Positions 12,989 through 18,642 of a DNA stretch of 64,000 nucleotides are shown piece by piece (positions within the stretch are counted from its first letter, which is position 1; every line of letters starts with the position of its first letter). Both the position numbers and the translations under genes were made by a program. A model generated the notes under the pieces. It searched no databases. It was not told where the DNA came from and saw nothing but the letters and a program-made list of their open reading frames with translations. The stretch lies in the IMG/VR virus record IMGVR_UViG_2868597578_000002; one strand, 5' to 3'. Source of the stretch: a virus. Its lineage: Duplodnaviria; Heunggongvirae; Uroviricota; Caudoviricetes.

Positions 12989-13825
12989 ATGGAAAAGATA
13001 GGAGCGAAAGAAAGCAGAAAAAAGAAAAAAAAGAAGATGACAGCCAGCGACGTTGTCTTGATTGTGATTTTTGTCGTTGCGATTACGGTCGCCGCTGTCT
13101 CCGGTTATAAATTATATTCTATCATGATGGAATACAAAGCGGGTGTCGATGAGTACAATGAAATTGCAGACACGGTTGTCAAAGAAAGAGATGCAGACGC
13201 GGAGGAAGTAAAAAAACTGAAAGACGCAAAAGGACATGAGACCAAACATTGGACGTCACCGTTGGAAATTAATTTTGATGAGTTGAAGAGCATTAATCAA
13301 GATGTAGCAGGTTGGCTTTATATGGAGGCTTTACCAAACATTAATTACCCGATTGTCCAGGGAAGTGATAATGATTTTTATTTACATCACACATACAAAA
13401 AAGAATCTATTTTCGCAGGTTCTATTTTTGTTGACTGCAAGAACACAAAAGATTTTTCCGACCAGAATACCATAGTTTATGGGCACAATATGAAGAATGG
13501 TTCTATGTTCGGAACATTAAAACAATATAAGCTGCAGGAGACCATTGATAAAAGTCCATACTTCTGGGTAATCACGCCAAAAGAAGCATATAAATATAAG
13601 ATTTTTGCGATGTATGTGGCCAATGTGGATGGCGATACGTACACTTTGATTAAGGGCCCGGGAAAAGAGACTATTGAATATGGTGAAAGTATGAAGGCAA
13701 AATCGCTGATAAATACAGGAGATTATCAATTTAAACAAACTGATAAGATTGTTACACTTTCAACATGTACAGGCGATTCTTCAACAAGATTTGTAGTACA
13801 GGGCGTAAGAGTAGAACCGGAATGA
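12989..13825 (+). CDS. srtB: Sortase (class B-like transpeptidase)
   Basis: N-terminal TM. Active-site His in IVYGHNM. Catalytic Cys in TLSTCTGDS (TLxTC motif). Arg in FVVQGVRVE. Confidence 0.85.
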   Translation: MEKIGAKESRKKKKKKMTASDVVLIVIFVVAITVAAVSGYKLYSIMMEYKAGVDEYNEIADTVVKERDADAEEVKKLKDAKGHETKHWTSPLEINFDELKSINQDVAGWLYMEALPNINYPIVQGSDNDFYLHHTYKKESIFAGSIFVDCKNTKDFSDQNTIVYGHNMKNGSMFGTLKQYKLQETIDKSPYFWVITPKEAYKYKIFAMYVANVDGDTYTLIKGPGKETIEYGESMKAKSLINTGDYQFKQTDKIVTLSTCTGDSSTRFVVQGVRVEPE

Positions 13826-13929
13826 GTGCAAAAAGATGACTGGATATAATGTCCGGTCATCTTTTTTTTGACAAAAATAAATTGTCAAGAAAAAGTGTTA
13901 CAAAAAAAAATTTATTTTGCATATTGAAT

Positions 13930-14235
13930 ATAGAGAACATGCAGGCATGGCCTATACGGCCGACCGGTAACTCGGAACAAACCCCTTTGTTATCAACGGA
14001 GAGCGAGAAGCCTCCGGCCGACCAAAAGTCGTCCGCGGGTAAAATGTCCCGGTTTTAACTTCGCACATGGGTCGGAATCCCCGTTCGAAGTCAGGTAACA
14101 GCCCGGCTCTGCTGGCGAGTTATCAATCGATGATACCGCGAGCTGTGCTCGCGTCTACCCAAGTCTCGTAAAGGCTGAACGCAGTAGGCTTTAGCCGCTG
14201 ACAAATGATACCTGCAGATAGTTCTAAAAGAACCA
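13930..14235 (+). repeat. GC-rich ORF-free region composed of interspersed repeat modules; possible small structured RNA
   Basis: Preceded by the GCATATT motif (13919-13925). Contains family-2 repeat gaccaaaagtcgtccgcgggtaa...ccggttttaacttcgcac (14015-14070), gagttatcaat and gataccgcgagctgtgctcgc modules. ORF 13849..14058 has no RBS and is judged spurious. Confidence 0.4.
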
Positions 14236-14278
14236 GCAAAAAAATATGCGAAAGCAAAAAAAATAGGAGATAAAAGAA

Positions 14279-17200
14279 ATGAAAAATAAAGTTATTTCAG
14301 CCATGCTTTTAGGCATGTCAGCAACAATGGCTGTGCCAGGCACAGTAGTTATGGCAGCGGAAGACGGTTCCGAGTCTACCGCAGTAGAGGAGACCGCAGC
14401 TGAGGTCCCAGAAGCAGAAGGAGGAGAGTCTGAGGCAGAGCAGAACGATGAGGAGAGCCAGGATAAACAGGATACCGATACAGCTGTCCAGAAAATGATT
14501 GACTATGCAACAGACGAGAGTGTAAAAGTCGCAGATACACCAGACGATTTCGGACCTAAACTGAGCAACATTGTTTTTTCTGATGATGTATTTGGAAAAT
14601 ATGCGGATTCATTAAATGAGTACATCAATGGAAGCGAGATAGATACAGATTCTATTTACAATTGCGAAATGGATATGGTAGATAAGGTAGCCGAACTTAC
14701 CAAAGATGAAAGTGCAGAAGCGATTGCTGCATCAAAATACCAGGTTGCTCTGACATTTGAAAGTGTTTATGGAGAGGACGCTTTTATGCCAGGACGGGAT
14801 ATCAGACGTGCACTGATTGCAGATAGCAGTAAAGATGAAGATTTTGCTGTATGCGGAACAATTGCAGAGGCTGATACGGTATACATCAGTGCAGGCGGAA
14901 CAACAGCGATTCCGACTACTCTTTTTAAAGCGGTATCCGAACAACCGGAAAATCCAGATGAGACAGGTGCTACAGACTCACCAAACGACACAGATTCAGT
15001 TACTAAAGACGAAGACCAGAACGGAGCAGATGACTCAACTACAGAAGAAACGCCGTCTGATACAACAAACCCGGATACCCCAGGAGACGTAACAACAGAT
15101 TCAGATTCTGCAGAGGAAGAAAAGAAAAGCCTTGATGAATACGTGGAAGGGCTTGACGATATTGAAATCCAGCTTGGAGATGACCTTCCGAGTCCACGCG
15201 TTTCCTATGATGATACAAAAGTCGTGTCTGTATCACTTGACACTTCAAAAGTAGACAAAAACACAATCGGAGTGTATACGATTTCTTACATCATCAAAGG
15301 AGTTGATGGTACCACTAAGATTGTAAATAAACAGTGTGCAGTATCTGAAGACCCGGTCCTTAAGGAACTGAGAAAACAGATGTGTGAAAAAGCCGGCGAG
15401 ATTGAAAAAGGTAAGTTTACCGAAAAAGATTTCAAAAGCAAATGGGATGAAGCCGTAAAAGCAGCAAAAGCAGAAATCAACAAGAAGAAAAATGAAGAAG
15501 AGATGCAGGCAGTGTTGGATAAACTGACAGAAACAGCCGCATCAATCCTTAATGACCAGCAGCTTTATGTAACTAAAAACGGATATGTTGGCGAAATGTA
15601 TAGTAAATTTGAGTCCATGGAATTTGTCACTGATGCGCAGAAAAACATGGCAAACGATGTCTTAAAAGACGCAGTCGCAAAAATCAAGAAATCCGAAACA
15701 GTTGAAGACGCTAAGCAGGCAATGGATGAAGGAATTGAAAGCATCGAAAAAATCGCTGCGCAGGATGATTCATCTATTGATGCGCTGAAGAGCGAGGCGA
15801 AGAAGAAAATCAATGCTGCTATGGATGGAATCAAGGATAAAACAACCGTACTGCAGAATGTATACGGTTCATTAATCTTCAAACTCGATACATGCACAAC
15901 AGCGAAAGAGATTGATTCCGTAACAAATTCCGCAGACAGCGCTTTTGCCCATGTGAAAGCTGCGATTGAAGGTGACATGGATTCAATGTTTGCTCTGTAT
16001 AAAGACCTTAAGGGAATTGCTCCAGACAGCGATACAACGGAAACAATTGACGAAATCATATTACTCGGCACACCAAGTGATATTTCTGATGGAGAAGATA
16101 AGATTTCAGATATCCATAAGGCTATCACGAGCGACGTGGATGAGTTTACAGCATATCTTACCGGACGCGCCGGTGAAACAATTTCTGGGGAAACAAAAGC
16201 AGAGGCTTATGCCGCTTACGTAAAAGCTACGAACGGAACCCCAGATGCAGACCTCACAAAAGTAAAAGAAGATGCAAAGTCAGAAATCCAGAAAGCACTT
16301 GATGAAATTACAAGTGACAATAAAGAAGTAACAGACAAGAAAGGTCAGATTAAAGACGAGGTGTTTAAAAAAATTGATGCCGCAGCATCTGCAGAAGAAG
16401 TAGAGACTATTGTCAGTGATGCTAAAAGCGAAATCAAGGACCTGAAAGATGAAATTACAAATAATGAGGGTCTGAGTTCAGTGAAAGAGAGCGCCAAGAA
16501 AGAGATTCAGAATACTGTAGACAATCAGTCTGACGAAGAACTGAAAGCCTCAATTCAGCAGCTGGCTGGTGCCGCACTGAAAAAAATAGAGAATGCTACA
16601 ACAGAGGATGAAGTAAAAGATATCGTAGAGGGATTTAAATCTGACGTACAGACAACTACAGATGCTTACAAAAAAGACAAAGAACTTGCATCAGTGAAAG
16701 CAGACACATTAAGTAAATTGTCTGTTCTTGAGTCAAAAGTGAAGTCTGAGTATGTAACAGCAGATATGAACAGCATCATCAGCACTGCGAAAGCAAACAT
16801 TGAAAATGCACAGTCTGCATCTGAATGCTCTAAGATTTACGCCCAGGCAAAAACGGATTACAACAATGCATACCTGACATCAATGCGGTCTGTATTTAAC
16901 AATAAGCTGGATGCACTCCTTACAGAGTACAAATTTACAGATGATACATATTCTCAGAAAGCACAGGAAGTAATCAACAAGCAGAAAGAGAACATTAACA
17001 AAGCAAAAAATGAAACAGCAATGGAAAAATGTTACAACCTTGCTAAAGACAACCTTGCGAAGCTTGTAACCGCGCAGGACGCAGCAGCAAAACTTGCACA
17101 AGCAAAAACGGATGCGATAGCAAAAATCAAAGCAATGGTAACAAATCCTACAGATACTTCGAACAAGATTATCGATACTTACACAGACAAAATCAACAAA

Positions 17201-17707: not shown

Positions 17708-17728
17708 GAACGATGTAACCATTACATG

Positions 17729-17752
17729 AGGCAGCCTGTGCTGCCTCATACA
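17729..17752 (+). terminator. Rho-independent terminator (tgaggcagc-ctgt-gctgcctca)
   Basis: Perfect 9-bp stem followed by an A/T-rich tract. Confidence 0.5.
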
Positions 17753-17781
17753 TAAAAATTCATAGAAAAGAGGAAAACATA

Positions 17782-18642
17782 ATGAAAAAAGGATTAATTG
17801 CTGTAGTGCTTGTTGCAGTTTTAGCCGCTGGAGGCGCTGGGGGCTATACTGTATACCAGAAAAAAGTAGTAGAAAAAAAATATGAGCAGGATATGACAAA
17901 AACGATATCAAGCCTGCCGGCTATCACGGTATACGAAAAAGAAGACCTCCCATCCGTAGAGGAAGAGTTCAAAGGCACCGAATCAAATATCAATATTGAT
18001 TCTATAACACCTGATATCAGTGGTGTACATACAAGCGAGCCGGGTGAATATGATGTTAAATACACTTTTAAAGACAGCCATGGCGCAGACAGGACTGCAA
18101 CTGTAAAATGCACCGTAAAACCTGAGTTAGCATCACATGTTGAGGGCATGCAGGATATCGAGATTGACAAAGGGGATGAACTGCCTACAGAATCCGGATG
18201 TACATTCGATGATTATGTAAGTTCCGTAACATTAAATACCGATGAGGTAGACAATGAAGAGGCTGGAACTTACGACATCTCTTACACGGTTCTTGGTGCA
18301 GATGGAGACATGAAGACAGTAGAAGGTTACACCTGTACCGTCAACGAAGTTGCAACGCCAACCCCAACGGCAACTCCAAAACCGACTGCAACGCCGAAGC
18401 CAACCGCTACCCCAGAGGCAAAACCGGAAGACAATACAGCACAGCCTGAAACGACAGAAGCAGAAGGTAATTCACAGCCTGAACAGGCAGCCGCTGATAC
18501 AGCAGTAGGAAACGTAGAAGTACAGAATAATGTTGTAGAGACAGGAGATGAGAACAATATCATCGCAATCGGAGCACTGATTGTTGTTTGCCTTGGTGCT
18601 GCCGCAGGAGTGCTGATTTATAAGAAGAAAAAGAAAAATTAA
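17782..18642 (+). CDS. Cell-surface protein with two Ig-like domains, a PT-rich linker and a C-terminal sorting signal
   Basis: Signal/TM N-terminus. Two Ig-like domains homologous to the one in the preceding gene. TPTPTATPKPTATPKPTATP linker. C-terminus ...VVETGDENNIIAIGALIVVCLGAAAGVLIYKKKKKN. Confidence 0.65.
   Translation: MKKGLIAVVLVAVLAAGGAGGYTVYQKKVVEKKYEQDMTKTISSLPAITVYEKEDLPSVEEEFKGTESNINIDSITPDISGVHTSEPGEYDVKYTFKDSHGADRTATVKCTVKPELASHVEGMQDIEIDKGDELPTESGCTFDDYVSSVTLNTDEVDNEEAGTYDISYTVLGADGDMKTVEGYTCTVNEVATPTPTATPKPTATPKPTATPEAKPEDNTAQPETTEAEGNSQPEQAAADTAVGNVEVQNNVVETGDENNIIAIGALIVVCLGAAAGVLIYKKKKKN

Follow-up and report, generated by a model that had tools for sequence, protein, structure and literature searches.

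Two putative surface proteins encoded directly behind a sortase gene end in a common V-x-T-G-D string. This raises the question of whether the string is an unusual recognition motif of that sortase, as the original prediction had it, and whether the surrounding genes form a self-contained surface-display module on a mobile element. The window, that is, the whole stretch of DNA that was analysed, comprises 64,000 nucleotides. An ORF check of this 64-kb window showed the sortase gene and both substrate genes to be present, and a consensus scan found the three genes bracketed by terminator-like hairpins. A further hairpin between the sortase and the first substrate gene was read from the letters by eye and is not listed by the consensus scan.

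12928..12950, plus strand: terminator-like hairpin bounding the sortase-substrate block on its 5' side (9-bp stem containing 6 GC pairs, then a T-run; from the consensus scan)
12989..13825, plus strand: class B sortase, 278 aa (TIGR03064 and PF04203 matches)
13834..13869, plus strand: intrinsic-terminator-like hairpin right after the sortase stop codon, AGATGACTGGA / TCCGGTCATCT, then a T-run (read by eye)
14279..17707, plus strand: substrate 1, 1142 aa, ending in ...TSGVKTGDDNMGIIAIAGAAITAALAAAFISLKKFIKR (ORF; AF2 model)
17597..17704, plus strand: sorting signal of substrate 1, G-V-K-T-G (17597-17611), Asp, short spacer, hydrophobic helix, KKFIKR (TIGR01167)
17782..18642, plus strand: substrate 2, 286 aa, ending in ...NNVVETGDENNIIAIGALIVVCLGAAAGVLIYKKKKKN (PF16403, 3.2e-10; AF2 model)
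18532..18639, plus strand: sorting signal of substrate 2, V-V-E-T-G (18532-18546), Asp-Glu-Asn-Asn, hydrophobic helix, YKKKKKN (TIGR01167)
18768..18791, plus strand: terminator-like hairpin, 3' boundary of the block, downstream of substrate 2 (consensus scan)

The sortase had been described as class-B-like from its TLSTC and GHNM motifs. It matches TIGR03064 ('class B sortase') with 180 bits (cutoff 153.75) and has an N-terminal membrane anchor at about residues 20-40, and its catalytic residues His166 (YGHNM), Cys260 (TLSTC) and Arg267 do not vary across an alignment of 12 sequences. Among PDB chains, the nearest are without exception SrtB enzymes, with Listeria Lmo2181 first, followed by those of C. 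perfringens, B. anthracis, C. difficile and S. aureus, while Spy0129 (3psq) is the weakest sortase match among the 15 SrtB chains listed. The match to C. difficile SrtB is a modest one of about 92 bits and the identity to the srtB product of pCS1 to about 32%. The model score, the catalytic residues and the nearest structures all support the class B assignment.

Substrate 1 starts with a Sec-type signal peptide (about residues 1-26, ending in ...VVMA before AE), after which come disordered acidic stretches and a single Ig/Rib-like domain (about residues 295-356); an array of helical bundles spanning ~700 residues then leads over a Gly/Ser/Thr linker to the sorting signal. Its AF2 model has a mean pLDDT of 78, and its fold matches, to Rib domains and the EbhA rod, are all weak, and the homologue search found relatives confined to this element family. 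Substrate 2 opens with a hydrophobic helix at the N-terminus, continues with two Rib/Ig-like domains in tandem and a disordered Pro/Thr-rich linker of about 55 residues, and ends in the sorting signal; an obvious AxA signal-peptidase site is not present in this protein. The pLDDT of its model exceeds 90 across residues 30-190, and Foldseek matched it to the tandem Rib domains of 6s5y (E 5e-8) and to InlK. As modelled, the substrate folds resemble the known wall-anchored stalk proteins Rib and InlK.

Both tails are tripartite, share V-x-T-G-D and are encoded immediately downstream of the class B sortase, as had been proposed. A pattern search of the full proteins found no LPxTG, NPxT[GN], [SP]PxTG or LAxTG anywhere in either substrate, in agreement with the reported lack of LPXTG, NPQTN and SPXTG. 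The search for other such proteins, suggested at the same time, was carried out for the window by a six-frame scan, which left these two only, with no further ORF combining motif, TM segment and basic tail. The tail of substrate 2 matches TIGR01167 with 22.3 bits (cutoff 15.9), T254 being aligned with the Thr of LPXTG, and that of substrate 1 (residues 1109-1138) reaches 15.1 bits, just below the cutoff. Since the Thr of the motif falls on the Thr of LPXTG, the pentapeptide is x-V-x-T-G (GVKTG and VVETG) with Asp at P2', and the register of the original V-x-T-G-D pentapeptide had to be corrected.

In the two substrate families, each of the 66 distinct intact tails has Val at P3, down to 28% identity. 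The homologues of substrate 1 end in x-V-[KRQ]-T-G-D in 26 of 26 distinct intact tails, likewise down to 28% identity, and those of substrate 2 have Val at P3 in 40 of 40, with V252, T254, G255, D256, N258 and N259 invariant in the alignment. Representatives at 50% identity read TVQTGD, PVPTGD, TVLTGD, VVKTGD, AVATGD and TVPTGD, and rare variants without Gly are TVATDD and TVKTSD. The spacing between motif and TM segment is 3 residues in all 40 distinct substrate-2 tails and 2 residues in 23 of the 26 substrate-1 tails. Thus the T-G-D residues, whose conservation and distance from the membrane segment the original prediction had made decisive, are conserved at a fixed distance. The invariance of Val, Thr, Gly and Asp beside a hypervariable upstream linker, together with the fixed spacing, places the motif beyond chance. 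Val at P3 was found in 1 of 29 tails of unrelated Ig-like surface proteins and in none of 7 substrates that adjoin other class B sortases, and among the relatives examined the Val motif always accompanied one clade of element-borne sortases.

The notion of an unusual motif held only in part. V-x-T-G-D is common to both tails, but T-G-D is not an odd core, because T-G is the canonical scissile pair and T-G-D the normal clostridial class B context. T-G-D occurs in seven of the eight C. difficile SrtB candidates (PMC4155245 Table 1), cleavage by clostridial SrtB between Thr and Gly inside ...KTGD... is experimentally established (PMC4155245), and T-G-D tails elsewhere, among them tails of proteins encoded next to other Lachnospiraceae class B sortases, include APKTGD of Butyrivibrio pCY360 and AKKTGD, NTKTGD, APRTGD and SKPTGD of Lachnospiraceae. 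Judged from the aligned tails, the distinctive feature is solely the Val where Pro normally sits. Val at P3 is already known for a class B sortase, S. pyogenes Spy0129 (EVPTG/QVPTG/VVPTG; PMC3019223), and CbpA of C. difficile (NVQTGD) is a second precedent (PMC4155245). NVQTG of CbpA, the only Val-at-P3 peptide tested in clostridia, was not cleaved in vitro by C. difficile SrtB, in assays with peptides lacking the native Asp (PMC4155245, PMC4371152); for B. anthracis SrtB, residues flanking the pentapeptide matter, Asp included (PMC11987632). We regard the signal as a conserved lineage-specific variant of the clostridial x-P-x-T-G-D, with Val for Pro at P3, and not as a new kind of system.

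The cassette resides on a large conjugative element whose host is a Lachnospiraceae-type bacterium (Blautia/'Ruminococcus') of the human gut. The predicted mobile element was recognized by genes for a T4SS coupling protein, a topoisomerase, a ParM-like protein and a CD1110-family VirB4; the conjugative gene set also includes a 2484-aa lysozyme-domain protein. The GC content of the window is ~40%, and the neighbours of the cassette in it include signal peptidase, FtsH-like and Ldt-like genes. IMG/VR holds a relative of the window. The gene order SGNH-like, sortase, large protein and small Ig-like protein is repeated in seven other element versions with sortases 51-80% identical. All their large proteins end in x-V-[KQ]-T-G-D and their small proteins in x-V-x-T-G-D with one exception (TVATDD), and sortase and motif co-occur in each related element examined. 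Upstream of the sortase block lie three further genes:

9539..10921, plus strand: PG_binding_4 protein with an L,D-transpeptidase-like region (PF12229, 1.4e-12)
10940..11512, plus strand: signal peptidase I (TIGR02227, 144.9 bits, cutoff 47; PF10502, 4.6e-45)
11693..12922, plus strand: membrane protein with an acidic linker and a C-terminal SGNH-like domain (faint matches of homologues)

The TIGR02227 score bears out the earlier signal peptidase I call, and the catalytic motifs read from the translation are intact (PSESM with Ser54, IKRIIGLPGE with Lys98, GDNRNESADSR). The SGNH hydrolase is a tentative assignment: homologues show faint matches to the SGNH-clan families DUF459, OSK and Lipase_GDSL_2, whereas the full-length window protein has no Pfam or PDB match. 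Its block-I motif reads GDE in the window copy and GDS in two relatives (L089 and L093), and the gene lies directly upstream of the sortase in all relatives. The signal peptidase is encoded in the window and in four of the seven related versions (L001, L004, L093, L100), whereas the upstream flanks of L089, L090 and L091, as far as sequenced, lack it, so that the description of the module as self-contained applies only in part. Among PDB entries, the PG_binding_4 product matches the L,D-transpeptidases 6fj1 and 1zat (E between 7e-6 and 5e-5), and its gene, syntenic in L001, L004, L089, L090, L091 and L100, is a conserved module member.

We favor, with a probability of roughly 70%, a sortase-dependent surface-display cassette on a conjugative gut Lachnospiraceae-type element, with a Val-for-Pro variant of x-P-x-T-G-D as its signal. 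Sec would export both substrates, the signal peptide of substrate 1 looking standard, and the C-terminal hydrophobic helix and Lys-rich tail would hold each of them in the membrane. We infer that cleavage occurs between Thr and Gly by the element's own rather than the host sortase. The Thr carboxyl would be passed to a cross-bridge amine of the peptidoglycan, probably meso-DAP as in related clostridia, and both proteins would end up attached to the wall, substrate 1 as a long helical rod and substrate 2 as a short stalk with two Ig domains. Most plausibly, the substrates would serve as adhesins for mating-pair formation or colonisation. SrtD of plasmid pCW3 is needed for efficient transfer (PMC8225981), whereas the srtB of plasmid pCS1 had no effect on transfer (PMC5770547), and therefore a role in conjugation is not a given.

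Alternatively, a housekeeping class B sortase of the host might anchor the substrates, the element sortase being a superfluous copy acquired from a Blautia-like chromosome and Val reflecting drift or the host's usual motif rather than a specificity determinant. In a neighbor-joining tree, which carries no support values, the element-borne sortases form a single clade with chromosomal Blautia SrtB as sister (about 50-54% identity). Only two alignment positions strictly separate these groups (V63/A and K202/R), hence the sequences carry no mark of an altered specificity, and the host enzyme might do just as well. A Sir2 gene adjoins srtB in Blautia chromosomes, and one lies 5 kb from the sortase gene in the window, which fits the capture of a chromosomal segment, and the variable P3 (K, T, P, A) of other Lachnospiraceae x-x-x-T-G-D tails suggests loose selectivity at this position. 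However, the more than 60 distinct tails come from two unrelated protein families and all keep Val, although P4 and P2 change freely between them, which argues for selection on Val itself, and the sortase is kept beside its substrates in every element version seen. We consider anchoring by the host enzyme the less likely alternative, with a modest probability.

Far less probable is a sortase-polymerised fibre like the S. pyogenes FCT pilus, in which the Thr of x-V-x-T-G would be joined to a Lys of the next subunit with the assistance of a signal-peptidase homologue. There, the class B enzyme Spy0129 recognises (E/Q/V)(V/P)PTG and SipA, encoded in the operon, is required for polymerisation (PMC3019223); some relatives of the small protein end in PVPTGD or TVPTGD, and substrate 2 is pilin-sized with two Ig-like domains. 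Yet these domains match Rib/InlK stalk domains and not CnaB pilin folds, the linker before the signal resembles wall-spanning anchors, and K113, the most suitable Lys, is replaced by Arg in one homologue. Moreover, the Ser/Lys catalytic motifs of the signal peptidase are intact, three related elements lack this peptidase, and the sortase is closest to housekeeping/Isd-type SrtB. Plain C-terminal membrane anchoring, with V-x-T-G-D as, e.g., a protease site or binding epitope, is similarly improbable: for C. difficile, NVQTG of CbpA has been called 'not a true substrate' (PMC5569036) and the rare variants lack Gly, but the motif lines up with the LPXTG-anchor model, proven SrtB cleavage sites have the identical T-G-D context, the sortase gene is invariably adjacent, and class B sortases are known to tolerate a non-Gly P1' (NPQTN; molecule name of PDB 1qx6/1qwz).

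The favored display cassette shares with C. difficile SrtB a class B sortase as wall-anchoring enzyme in a clostridial lineage, and with its substrates (SPKTGD, PPKTGD, SPQTGD) the order x-x-x-T-G-D, TM segment and basic tail, cleavage between Thr and Gly having been demonstrated there; CbpA even holds the same V-x-T-G-D string (PMC4155245). In contrast, C. difficile SrtB prefers Pro at P3 where Val is universal here, and here the sortase is encoded beside its substrates on a conjugative element. Isd-type SrtB (S. aureus NPQTN; B. anthracis NPKTGDE) belongs to the same enzyme class, but the present signals lack both Asn at P4 and Pro at P3, and the genes around the cassette include none for NEAT proteins or heme uptake. 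As in the FCT locus, where Spy0129 accepts Val at P3, the sortase is co-encoded with substrates and a signal-peptidase-family gene (PMC3019223); that locus differs in polymerising CnaB-type pilins with a non-catalytic SipA chaperone, while here the peptidase seems to be catalytically competent, Rib-like and helical-rod folds with wall-spanning linkers make up the substrates, and P2 is mostly K/E/Q/A rather than Pro. The plasmids pCW3 (SrtD) and pCS1 (srtB) likewise encode a sortase and wall-anchored proteins near a Gram-positive T4SS, although sortase classes, motifs and substrates (CnaB/CnaC collagen-adhesin types) differ. The 'Hodor' megaplasmids of human-gut Bacillota are also large and conjugative, carry their own class B sortase with a conserved surface-protein module as well as ParM, VirB4, VirD4 and Phage_lysozyme2 proteins, and were first catalogued among phages (bioRxiv 10.64898/2026.02.21.707213). 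Their SrtB occurs with SecYEG, trigger factor and giant S-layer/MBG proteins (>7300 and ~2600 aa) at 44-47% GC; none of these features was seen in this 64-kb window, whose substrates have 1142 and 286 aa at ~40% GC. [quoted passage not shown] This chromosomal locus differs in its motif, with Pro at both P3 and P1', and in its adhesin, an MSCRAMM with CnaB repeats, but it shows that Lachnospiraceae do have dedicated pairs of SrtB and adhesin with odd motifs.

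The sortase gene and the two co-oriented genes that follow it are bracketed by terminator-like hairpins, and the cassette is laid out as follows:

12928-12950, terminator-like hairpin
12989-13825, + strand, class B sortase of 278 aa; N-terminus rich in Lys, a single hydrophobic anchor, motifs YGHNM and TLSTC
13834-13869, hairpin and T-run following the sortase stop codon, read by eye from the sequence
14279-17707, + strand, substrate 1, ORF of 1142 aa
17782-18642, + strand, substrate 2, ORF of 286 aa
18768-18791, terminator-like hairpin

The sortase scored 180 bits against TIGR03064 'class B sortase' (MEROPS C60B, cutoff 153.75) and also matched Pfam Sortase. 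All 15 PDB matches in a sequence search were SrtB-type chains; the closest solved relative was Listeria Lmo2181, followed by the SrtB enzymes of C. perfringens, B. anthracis, C. difficile and S. aureus, and the weakest match among the chains listed was Spy0129 (3psq), the S. pyogenes pilus enzyme. His166, Cys260 and Arg267 were invariant in an alignment of the window copy with eleven homologues (49-79% identity), and a hydrophobic stretch at about residues 20-40 marks the N-terminal membrane anchor. The product is a class B sortase, with predicted transpeptidase activity on a sorting signal. The LPKTxAVK-specific class B sortases (NF040525) were ruled out, with 82.2 bits versus the required minimum of at least 200.

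Both putative substrates carry tripartite tails composed of a motif, a hydrophobic segment of ~20 aa and basic residues (...TSGVKTGDDNMGIIAIAGAAITAALAAAFISLKKFIKR in substrate 1, ...NNVVETGDENNIIAIGALIVVCLGAAAGVLIYKKKKKN in substrate 2), with a C-terminal helix in both AF2 models. The ORFs, the TIGR03064 match and these tails confirm the original prediction of a sortase beside two adjacent candidate substrates that share V-x-T-G-D. A six-frame scan of the 64-kb window for further ORFs ending in a motif, a TM segment and a basic tail found none beyond these two. Against TIGR01167 (LPXTG anchor, cutoff 15.9), substrate 2 scored 22.3 bits and substrate 1 scored 15.1 bits, just under the cutoff. 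Since this alignment places the Thr of both motifs on the Thr of LPXTG, the pentapeptides read G-V-K-T-G and V-V-E-T-G. In this register Val takes P3, the usual place of Pro, and Asp directly follows the predicted scissile T|G bond. The string V-x-T-G-D had therefore been read correctly, but as a unit it straddles the cleavage site.

The strings LPxTG, NPxT[GN], [SP]PxTG and LAxTG were found nowhere in substrate 1 or substrate 2; in place of Leu-Pro at P4-P3, substrate 1 has G-V and substrate 2 has V-V. An Isd/NPQTN-type SrtB system was ruled out by the absence of an N-P-x-T-[NG] motif and of NEAT matches among the neighbours, and the GVDTG sorting domain (NF058571, GVDTG_CTERM) by a score of 11.5 bits versus at least 29, with the TM part alone aligned. 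No NCBIfam sorting-domain model is specific for x-V-x-T-G-D. A full-text literature search for VKTG, VETG, VxTG or GVDTG as a sortase motif returned nothing relevant, and literature searches on Lachnospiraceae or Blautia sorting motifs mostly yielded nothing useful.

The closest resemblance is to clostridial class B signals. The invariant T-G-D, the short spacer of 2-3 residues and the TM segment all follow the clostridial type (cf. PMC4155245, Table 1), but the (S/P)P of (S/P)PxTG is replaced: every one of the 66 distinct intact tails has Val at P3. T-G-D itself is the standard context of clostridial class B substrates: seven of eight C. difficile candidate substrates read x-x-x-T-G-D, and C. 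difficile SrtB cuts PVPPKT|GDS between T and G (PMC4155245). In B. anthracis, SrtB activity needs residues on either side of NPKTG, Asp included (PMC11987632). What had been proposed as an unusual recognition motif is accordingly unusual in its conserved Val at P3 but not in its T-G-D. This Val is the distinctive feature of the signals, and it has two precedents. The first is C. difficile CbpA, whose C-terminal motif is NVQTGD (PMC4155245); two groups found NVQTG peptides, which lacked the native Asp, to be uncleaved by C. difficile SrtB (PMC4155245, PMC4371152), and CbpA has been doubted as a SrtB substrate (PMC5569036). The second is Spy0129, a class B sortase that uses (E/Q/V)(V/P)PTG (PMC3019223).

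The motif is strongly conserved across homologues. The substrate-2 family comprised 81 database matches, all inside the same element family, with 52 distinct tails; all 40 intact ones combined Val at P3 with T-G-D and a spacer of exactly three residues before the hydrophobic segment, and variants included VVATGD, IVATGD and SVQTGD. In a 12-sequence alignment (55-74% identity), V252, T254, G255, D256, N258 and N259 were invariant, and the Pro/Thr-rich linker of ~45 residues just upstream was hypervariable. Among 55 matches to substrate 1, with identities down to 28%, all 26 distinct intact tails read x-V-[KRQ]-T-G-D; P4 varies freely (G, S, K, T, N, D, A), and V1108, T1110, G1111 and D1112 were invariant in the alignment. 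When 1.8 billion representatives clustered at 50% identity were searched with a profile, more distant relatives of the small protein turned up, with TVQTGD, PVPTGD, TVLTGD, VVKTGD, AVATGD, TVPTGD and one TVKTSD. The homologue alignments thus showed neither a loss of T-G-D conservation nor a variable distance to the membrane segment, either of which would have spoken against the original prediction, and conservation over more than 60 distinct homologue tails rules out a chance origin. The motif Gly is replaced in two distant small-protein relatives, T-V-A-T-D-D (locus L090, 9463-10308) and T-V-K-T-S-D (database protein P0214); the sortase may accept residues other than Gly at P1', as NPQTN-type SrtB does; otherwise these copies would have lost their anchoring.

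Contigs with sortases 51-80% identical to that of the window share a gene order of PG_binding_4 protein, sometimes signal peptidase, SGNH-like protein, sortase, large protein and small Ig-like protein. Their large/small tails read GVKTGD/VVETGD, KVKTGD/VVETGD, QVKTGD/SVQTGD, KVQTGD/PVPTGD and GVKTGD/TVATDD, with SVKTGD and NVKTGD as further examples. Beside more distant class B sortases Val was not found at P3: the substrates read AKKTGD, NTKTGD, APRTGD and SKPTGD on Lachnospiraceae chromosomes, APKTGD on Butyrivibrio pCY360, and TPVTGD and LPRTGD on IMG/VR contigs. Of 29 unrelated Ig-like surface proteins whose sorting motifs could be recognised, 23 had Pro at P3 and one had Val (GVNTGN); the cluster names of ten unrelated tails gave Listeria or Clostridium only, or no name.

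In a neighbour-joining tree of 89 sortases, calculated without support values, the element-borne sortases formed a single clade, sister to chromosomal Blautia SrtB. The sole fixed differences between the seven element-borne and the 23 chromosomal Blautia sortases were V63 versus A and K202 versus R, so that no changed specificity is visible in the sortase sequence. In 80 chromosomal srtB neighbourhoods from Lachnospiraceae, four substrates were found in all, none of them from the Blautia sister clade, whose srtB genes had no substrate within 10 kb. Sir2-family genes recur around these enzymes: one lies directly 3' of chromosomal Blautia-type srtB genes (e.g. 10845-11576 of contig L007), one database protein (P0097) is a Sir2-sortase fusion, and in the window a Sir2-family gene lies at 7140-7985, 5 kb upstream of the sortase.

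Taken together, these comparisons point to a clostridial class B sorting signal in which one lineage has Val in place of Pro, carried on an element-borne sortase/adhesin cassette; the signal is not a new recognition principle. A stronger reading, which we consider possible but rather doubtful, is that the sortase co-evolved with both cargo proteins for Val over Pro at P3 and so forms a private, portable sorting code; Val at P3 is the residue rejected by the housekeeping clostridial SrtB in C. difficile (PMC4155245, PMC4371152). Alternatively, Val at P3 could be merely a habit of the host lineage. If the code were private, adhesin display would not depend on the sortase of the recipient host and would be shielded from it, and x-V-x-T-G-D would mark out a new specificity subgroup within class B, with a naturally orthogonal sortase/tag pair.

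Both cargo proteins look, in their structural models, like wall-anchored stalk or fibril proteins and not like pilins. The AF2 model of substrate 2 (12 homologues) reached pLDDT >90 over residues 30-190. From the N- to the C-terminus, a helix is followed in this model by two beta-sandwich domains and a disordered linker of ~55 residues, before a final helix. Foldseek matched substrate 2 to streptococcal surface proteins, namely their tandem Rib domains (6s5y, E 5e-8), and to Listeria InlK. Its residues 1-43 (17782-17910) include a conserved N-terminal hydrophobic helix ending in GGAGGY, without a clear AxA site, and AF2 extends this helix unbroken to residue 43. An uncleaved substrate 2 would be fixed by one end to the membrane and by the opposite end to the wall; it may alternatively be a client of the element's own signal peptidase. 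Substrate 1 (mean pLDDT 78) begins in its model with a standard signal peptide and continues with acidic disordered segments, a single Ig/Rib-like domain and helical bundles that span ~700 residues. Its fold matches were weak (the S. aureus EbhA rod and Rib domains), and the helical array had no significant match in the PDB (best E 0.04, EbhA).

Upstream of the cassette, the following genes were recognised:

2625-4085, transposase ORF (phrog_506, 6.7e-95)
4750-6573, full-length FtsH-like AAA+/M41 protease, conserved in relatives
9539-10921, PG_binding_4 protein resembling the L,D-transpeptidases PDB 6fj1 and 1zat (E 7e-6 to 5e-5)
upstream of the cassette, signal peptidase I with intact catalytic motifs (Ser54, Lys98; TIGR02227, 144.9 bits)
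11693-12922, SGNH-like gene directly upstream of the sortase, with an SGNH-like C-terminal domain

The transposase is, at a guess, of the TnpB/OrfB type. The PG_binding_4 protein was syntenic in all related elements, and a peptidoglycan cross-linking enzyme that travels with the sortase could be remodelling the anchoring site. The signal peptidase I expected just upstream was found; the SGNH hydrolase expected there was recovered only in part. Pfam, PDB sequence and PDB profile searches of 11693-12922 gave faint clan-level matches only, with homologues matching DUF459, OSK and Lipase_GDSL_2 at E 1e-3 to 4e-2; the block-I motif is GDE in the window copy in place of the GDS seen in loci L089 and L093 (GDL or GDG in others), and the block-V His seems to be replaced. 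The gene probably encodes a non-catalytic or re-purposed SGNH fold. Further upstream, 8819-9484 encodes a 221-aa protein with N-terminal membrane segments and a low-complexity middle rich in Tyr, Gly, Asn and Ser; its C-terminal stretch reads like a J-domain (...KTAHPDAGGSNEEAEKINEYYEILKKY), with no Pfam match at E<=0.001.

The gap of 453 bp between the sortase and substrate 1 contains a GC-rich repeat (ATYAAC|GGAGAACGGGAAATCCCCGGCCGAC...GTTCGAAGTCTGGTTACGAGCSSGAASSGCGAGTTATCAA; core ~132-136 nt), which in the window lies in the 5' region of large secreted protein genes:

13992-14127, + strand, repeat copy in the gap
21577-21655, + strand, repeat copy
44067-44157, + strand, repeat copy

A search with a degenerate 36-nt pattern of the repeat found 83 exact matches among contigs of human-gut metagenomes; contigs of 100-170 kb often had 2-3 each. 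Copies are bounded by TTATCAA-like words, some are in tandem, and they carry optional modular hairpin inserts with swapped base pairs in the terminal hairpin (GCCGGAACGGC, GCGCGAAGCGC, GCACGAAGTGC). The repeat was not present in the corresponding gaps of related loci and had no Rfam match. Upstream of the substrates, the lack of any Rfam match at gathering score or E<=1 ruled out a riboswitch, whether of the c-di-GMP type as known from C. difficile or of another type. The repeat may be a non-autonomous element of the IS200/IS605 type (omega-RNA-like) or a structured leader RNA.

Judged from its genes, the window is a conjugative element:

34951-37500, T4SS coupling protein (VirD4/TraG; PF02534 at 6.7e-70)
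37911-40559, topoisomerase
60120-62567, VirB4, matching 'VirB4-like, CD1110 family' in plasmids at ~42% identity

The coupling protein and VirB4 bear out the mobile element that had been proposed. Other products of the window are a ParM-like ALP_N protein, a RecD2-like helicase and a protein of 2484 aa with a Phage_lysozyme2 domain at its C-terminal end; no relaxase or oriT was recognised among the ORFs scanned in the window, and the element continues beyond it. A phage origin was ruled out, as PHROGs gave no structural or packaging genes in the window and the T4SS genes were clear; elements of this kind may be misfiled as phages. The element is widespread in the human gut: related contigs of 80-198 kb came from human-gut metagenomes, and one version was present in the cultured 'Ruminococcus sp.' assembly GCA_040919145.1. 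PLSDB plasmids held no near-identical DNA. A 59.6-kb relative with a 79% identical sortase and the tail NVKTGD (L184, IMGVR_UViG_3300029091_000057) is catalogued as viral in IMG/VR, and in another relative (L004, 1-2440) the NrdD gene is split by an HNH endonuclease.

To our knowledge, no common sortases are less well understood than those of class B, and we know of almost nothing on surface display in gut Lachnospiraceae. The cassette offers a natural enzyme with two substrates and invariant, easily mutated features (Val at P3, Asp at P2'), and the system is tractable because of this pairing, these residues, the wide distribution of the element and the version in a cultured isolate. It would allow one to ask what determines the P3 selectivity of class B sortases, why C. 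difficile SrtB fails to cleave the NVQTGD of CbpA, and whether mobile elements carry their own anchoring enzyme for host independence. If the pair is orthogonal, it is a possible surface-display or ligation tool for Lachnospiraceae engineering; if not, this is an ordinary plasmid adhesin cassette.

Plasmid-borne sortases are known: SrtD of pCW3 helps transfer (PMC8225981), and srtB of pCS1 does not (PMC5770547). The 'Hodor' megaplasmids of the gut, described in a 2026 preprint (bioRxiv 10.64898/2026.02.21.707213), encode a class B sortase and a surface module of their own; their neighbouring genes and cargo are unlike those in the window. The Hodor hallmarks (SrtB beside SecYEG and trigger factor; surface proteins of >7300 and ~2600 aa) are absent within the 64-kb window; related contigs reach 198 kb, so that the comparison covers part of the element. 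The FCT/PI-2 pilus systems share a class B sortase with a Val-containing motif, here x-V-x-T-G, and Spy0129 is co-encoded with the signal-peptidase-like SipA (PMC3019223). However, SipA is non-catalytic, whereas the peptidase of the window keeps its Ser54/Lys98 motifs and scores 144.9 bits against TIGR02227, and the peptidase gene is not constant here, being absent from three related loci (L089, L090, L091). Substrate 2 has no invariant acceptor Lys, the candidate K113 being Arg in the database homologue P0187, and its fold matches are Rib/InlK-like, in contrast to the CnaB/DEv-IgG fold of the pilins.
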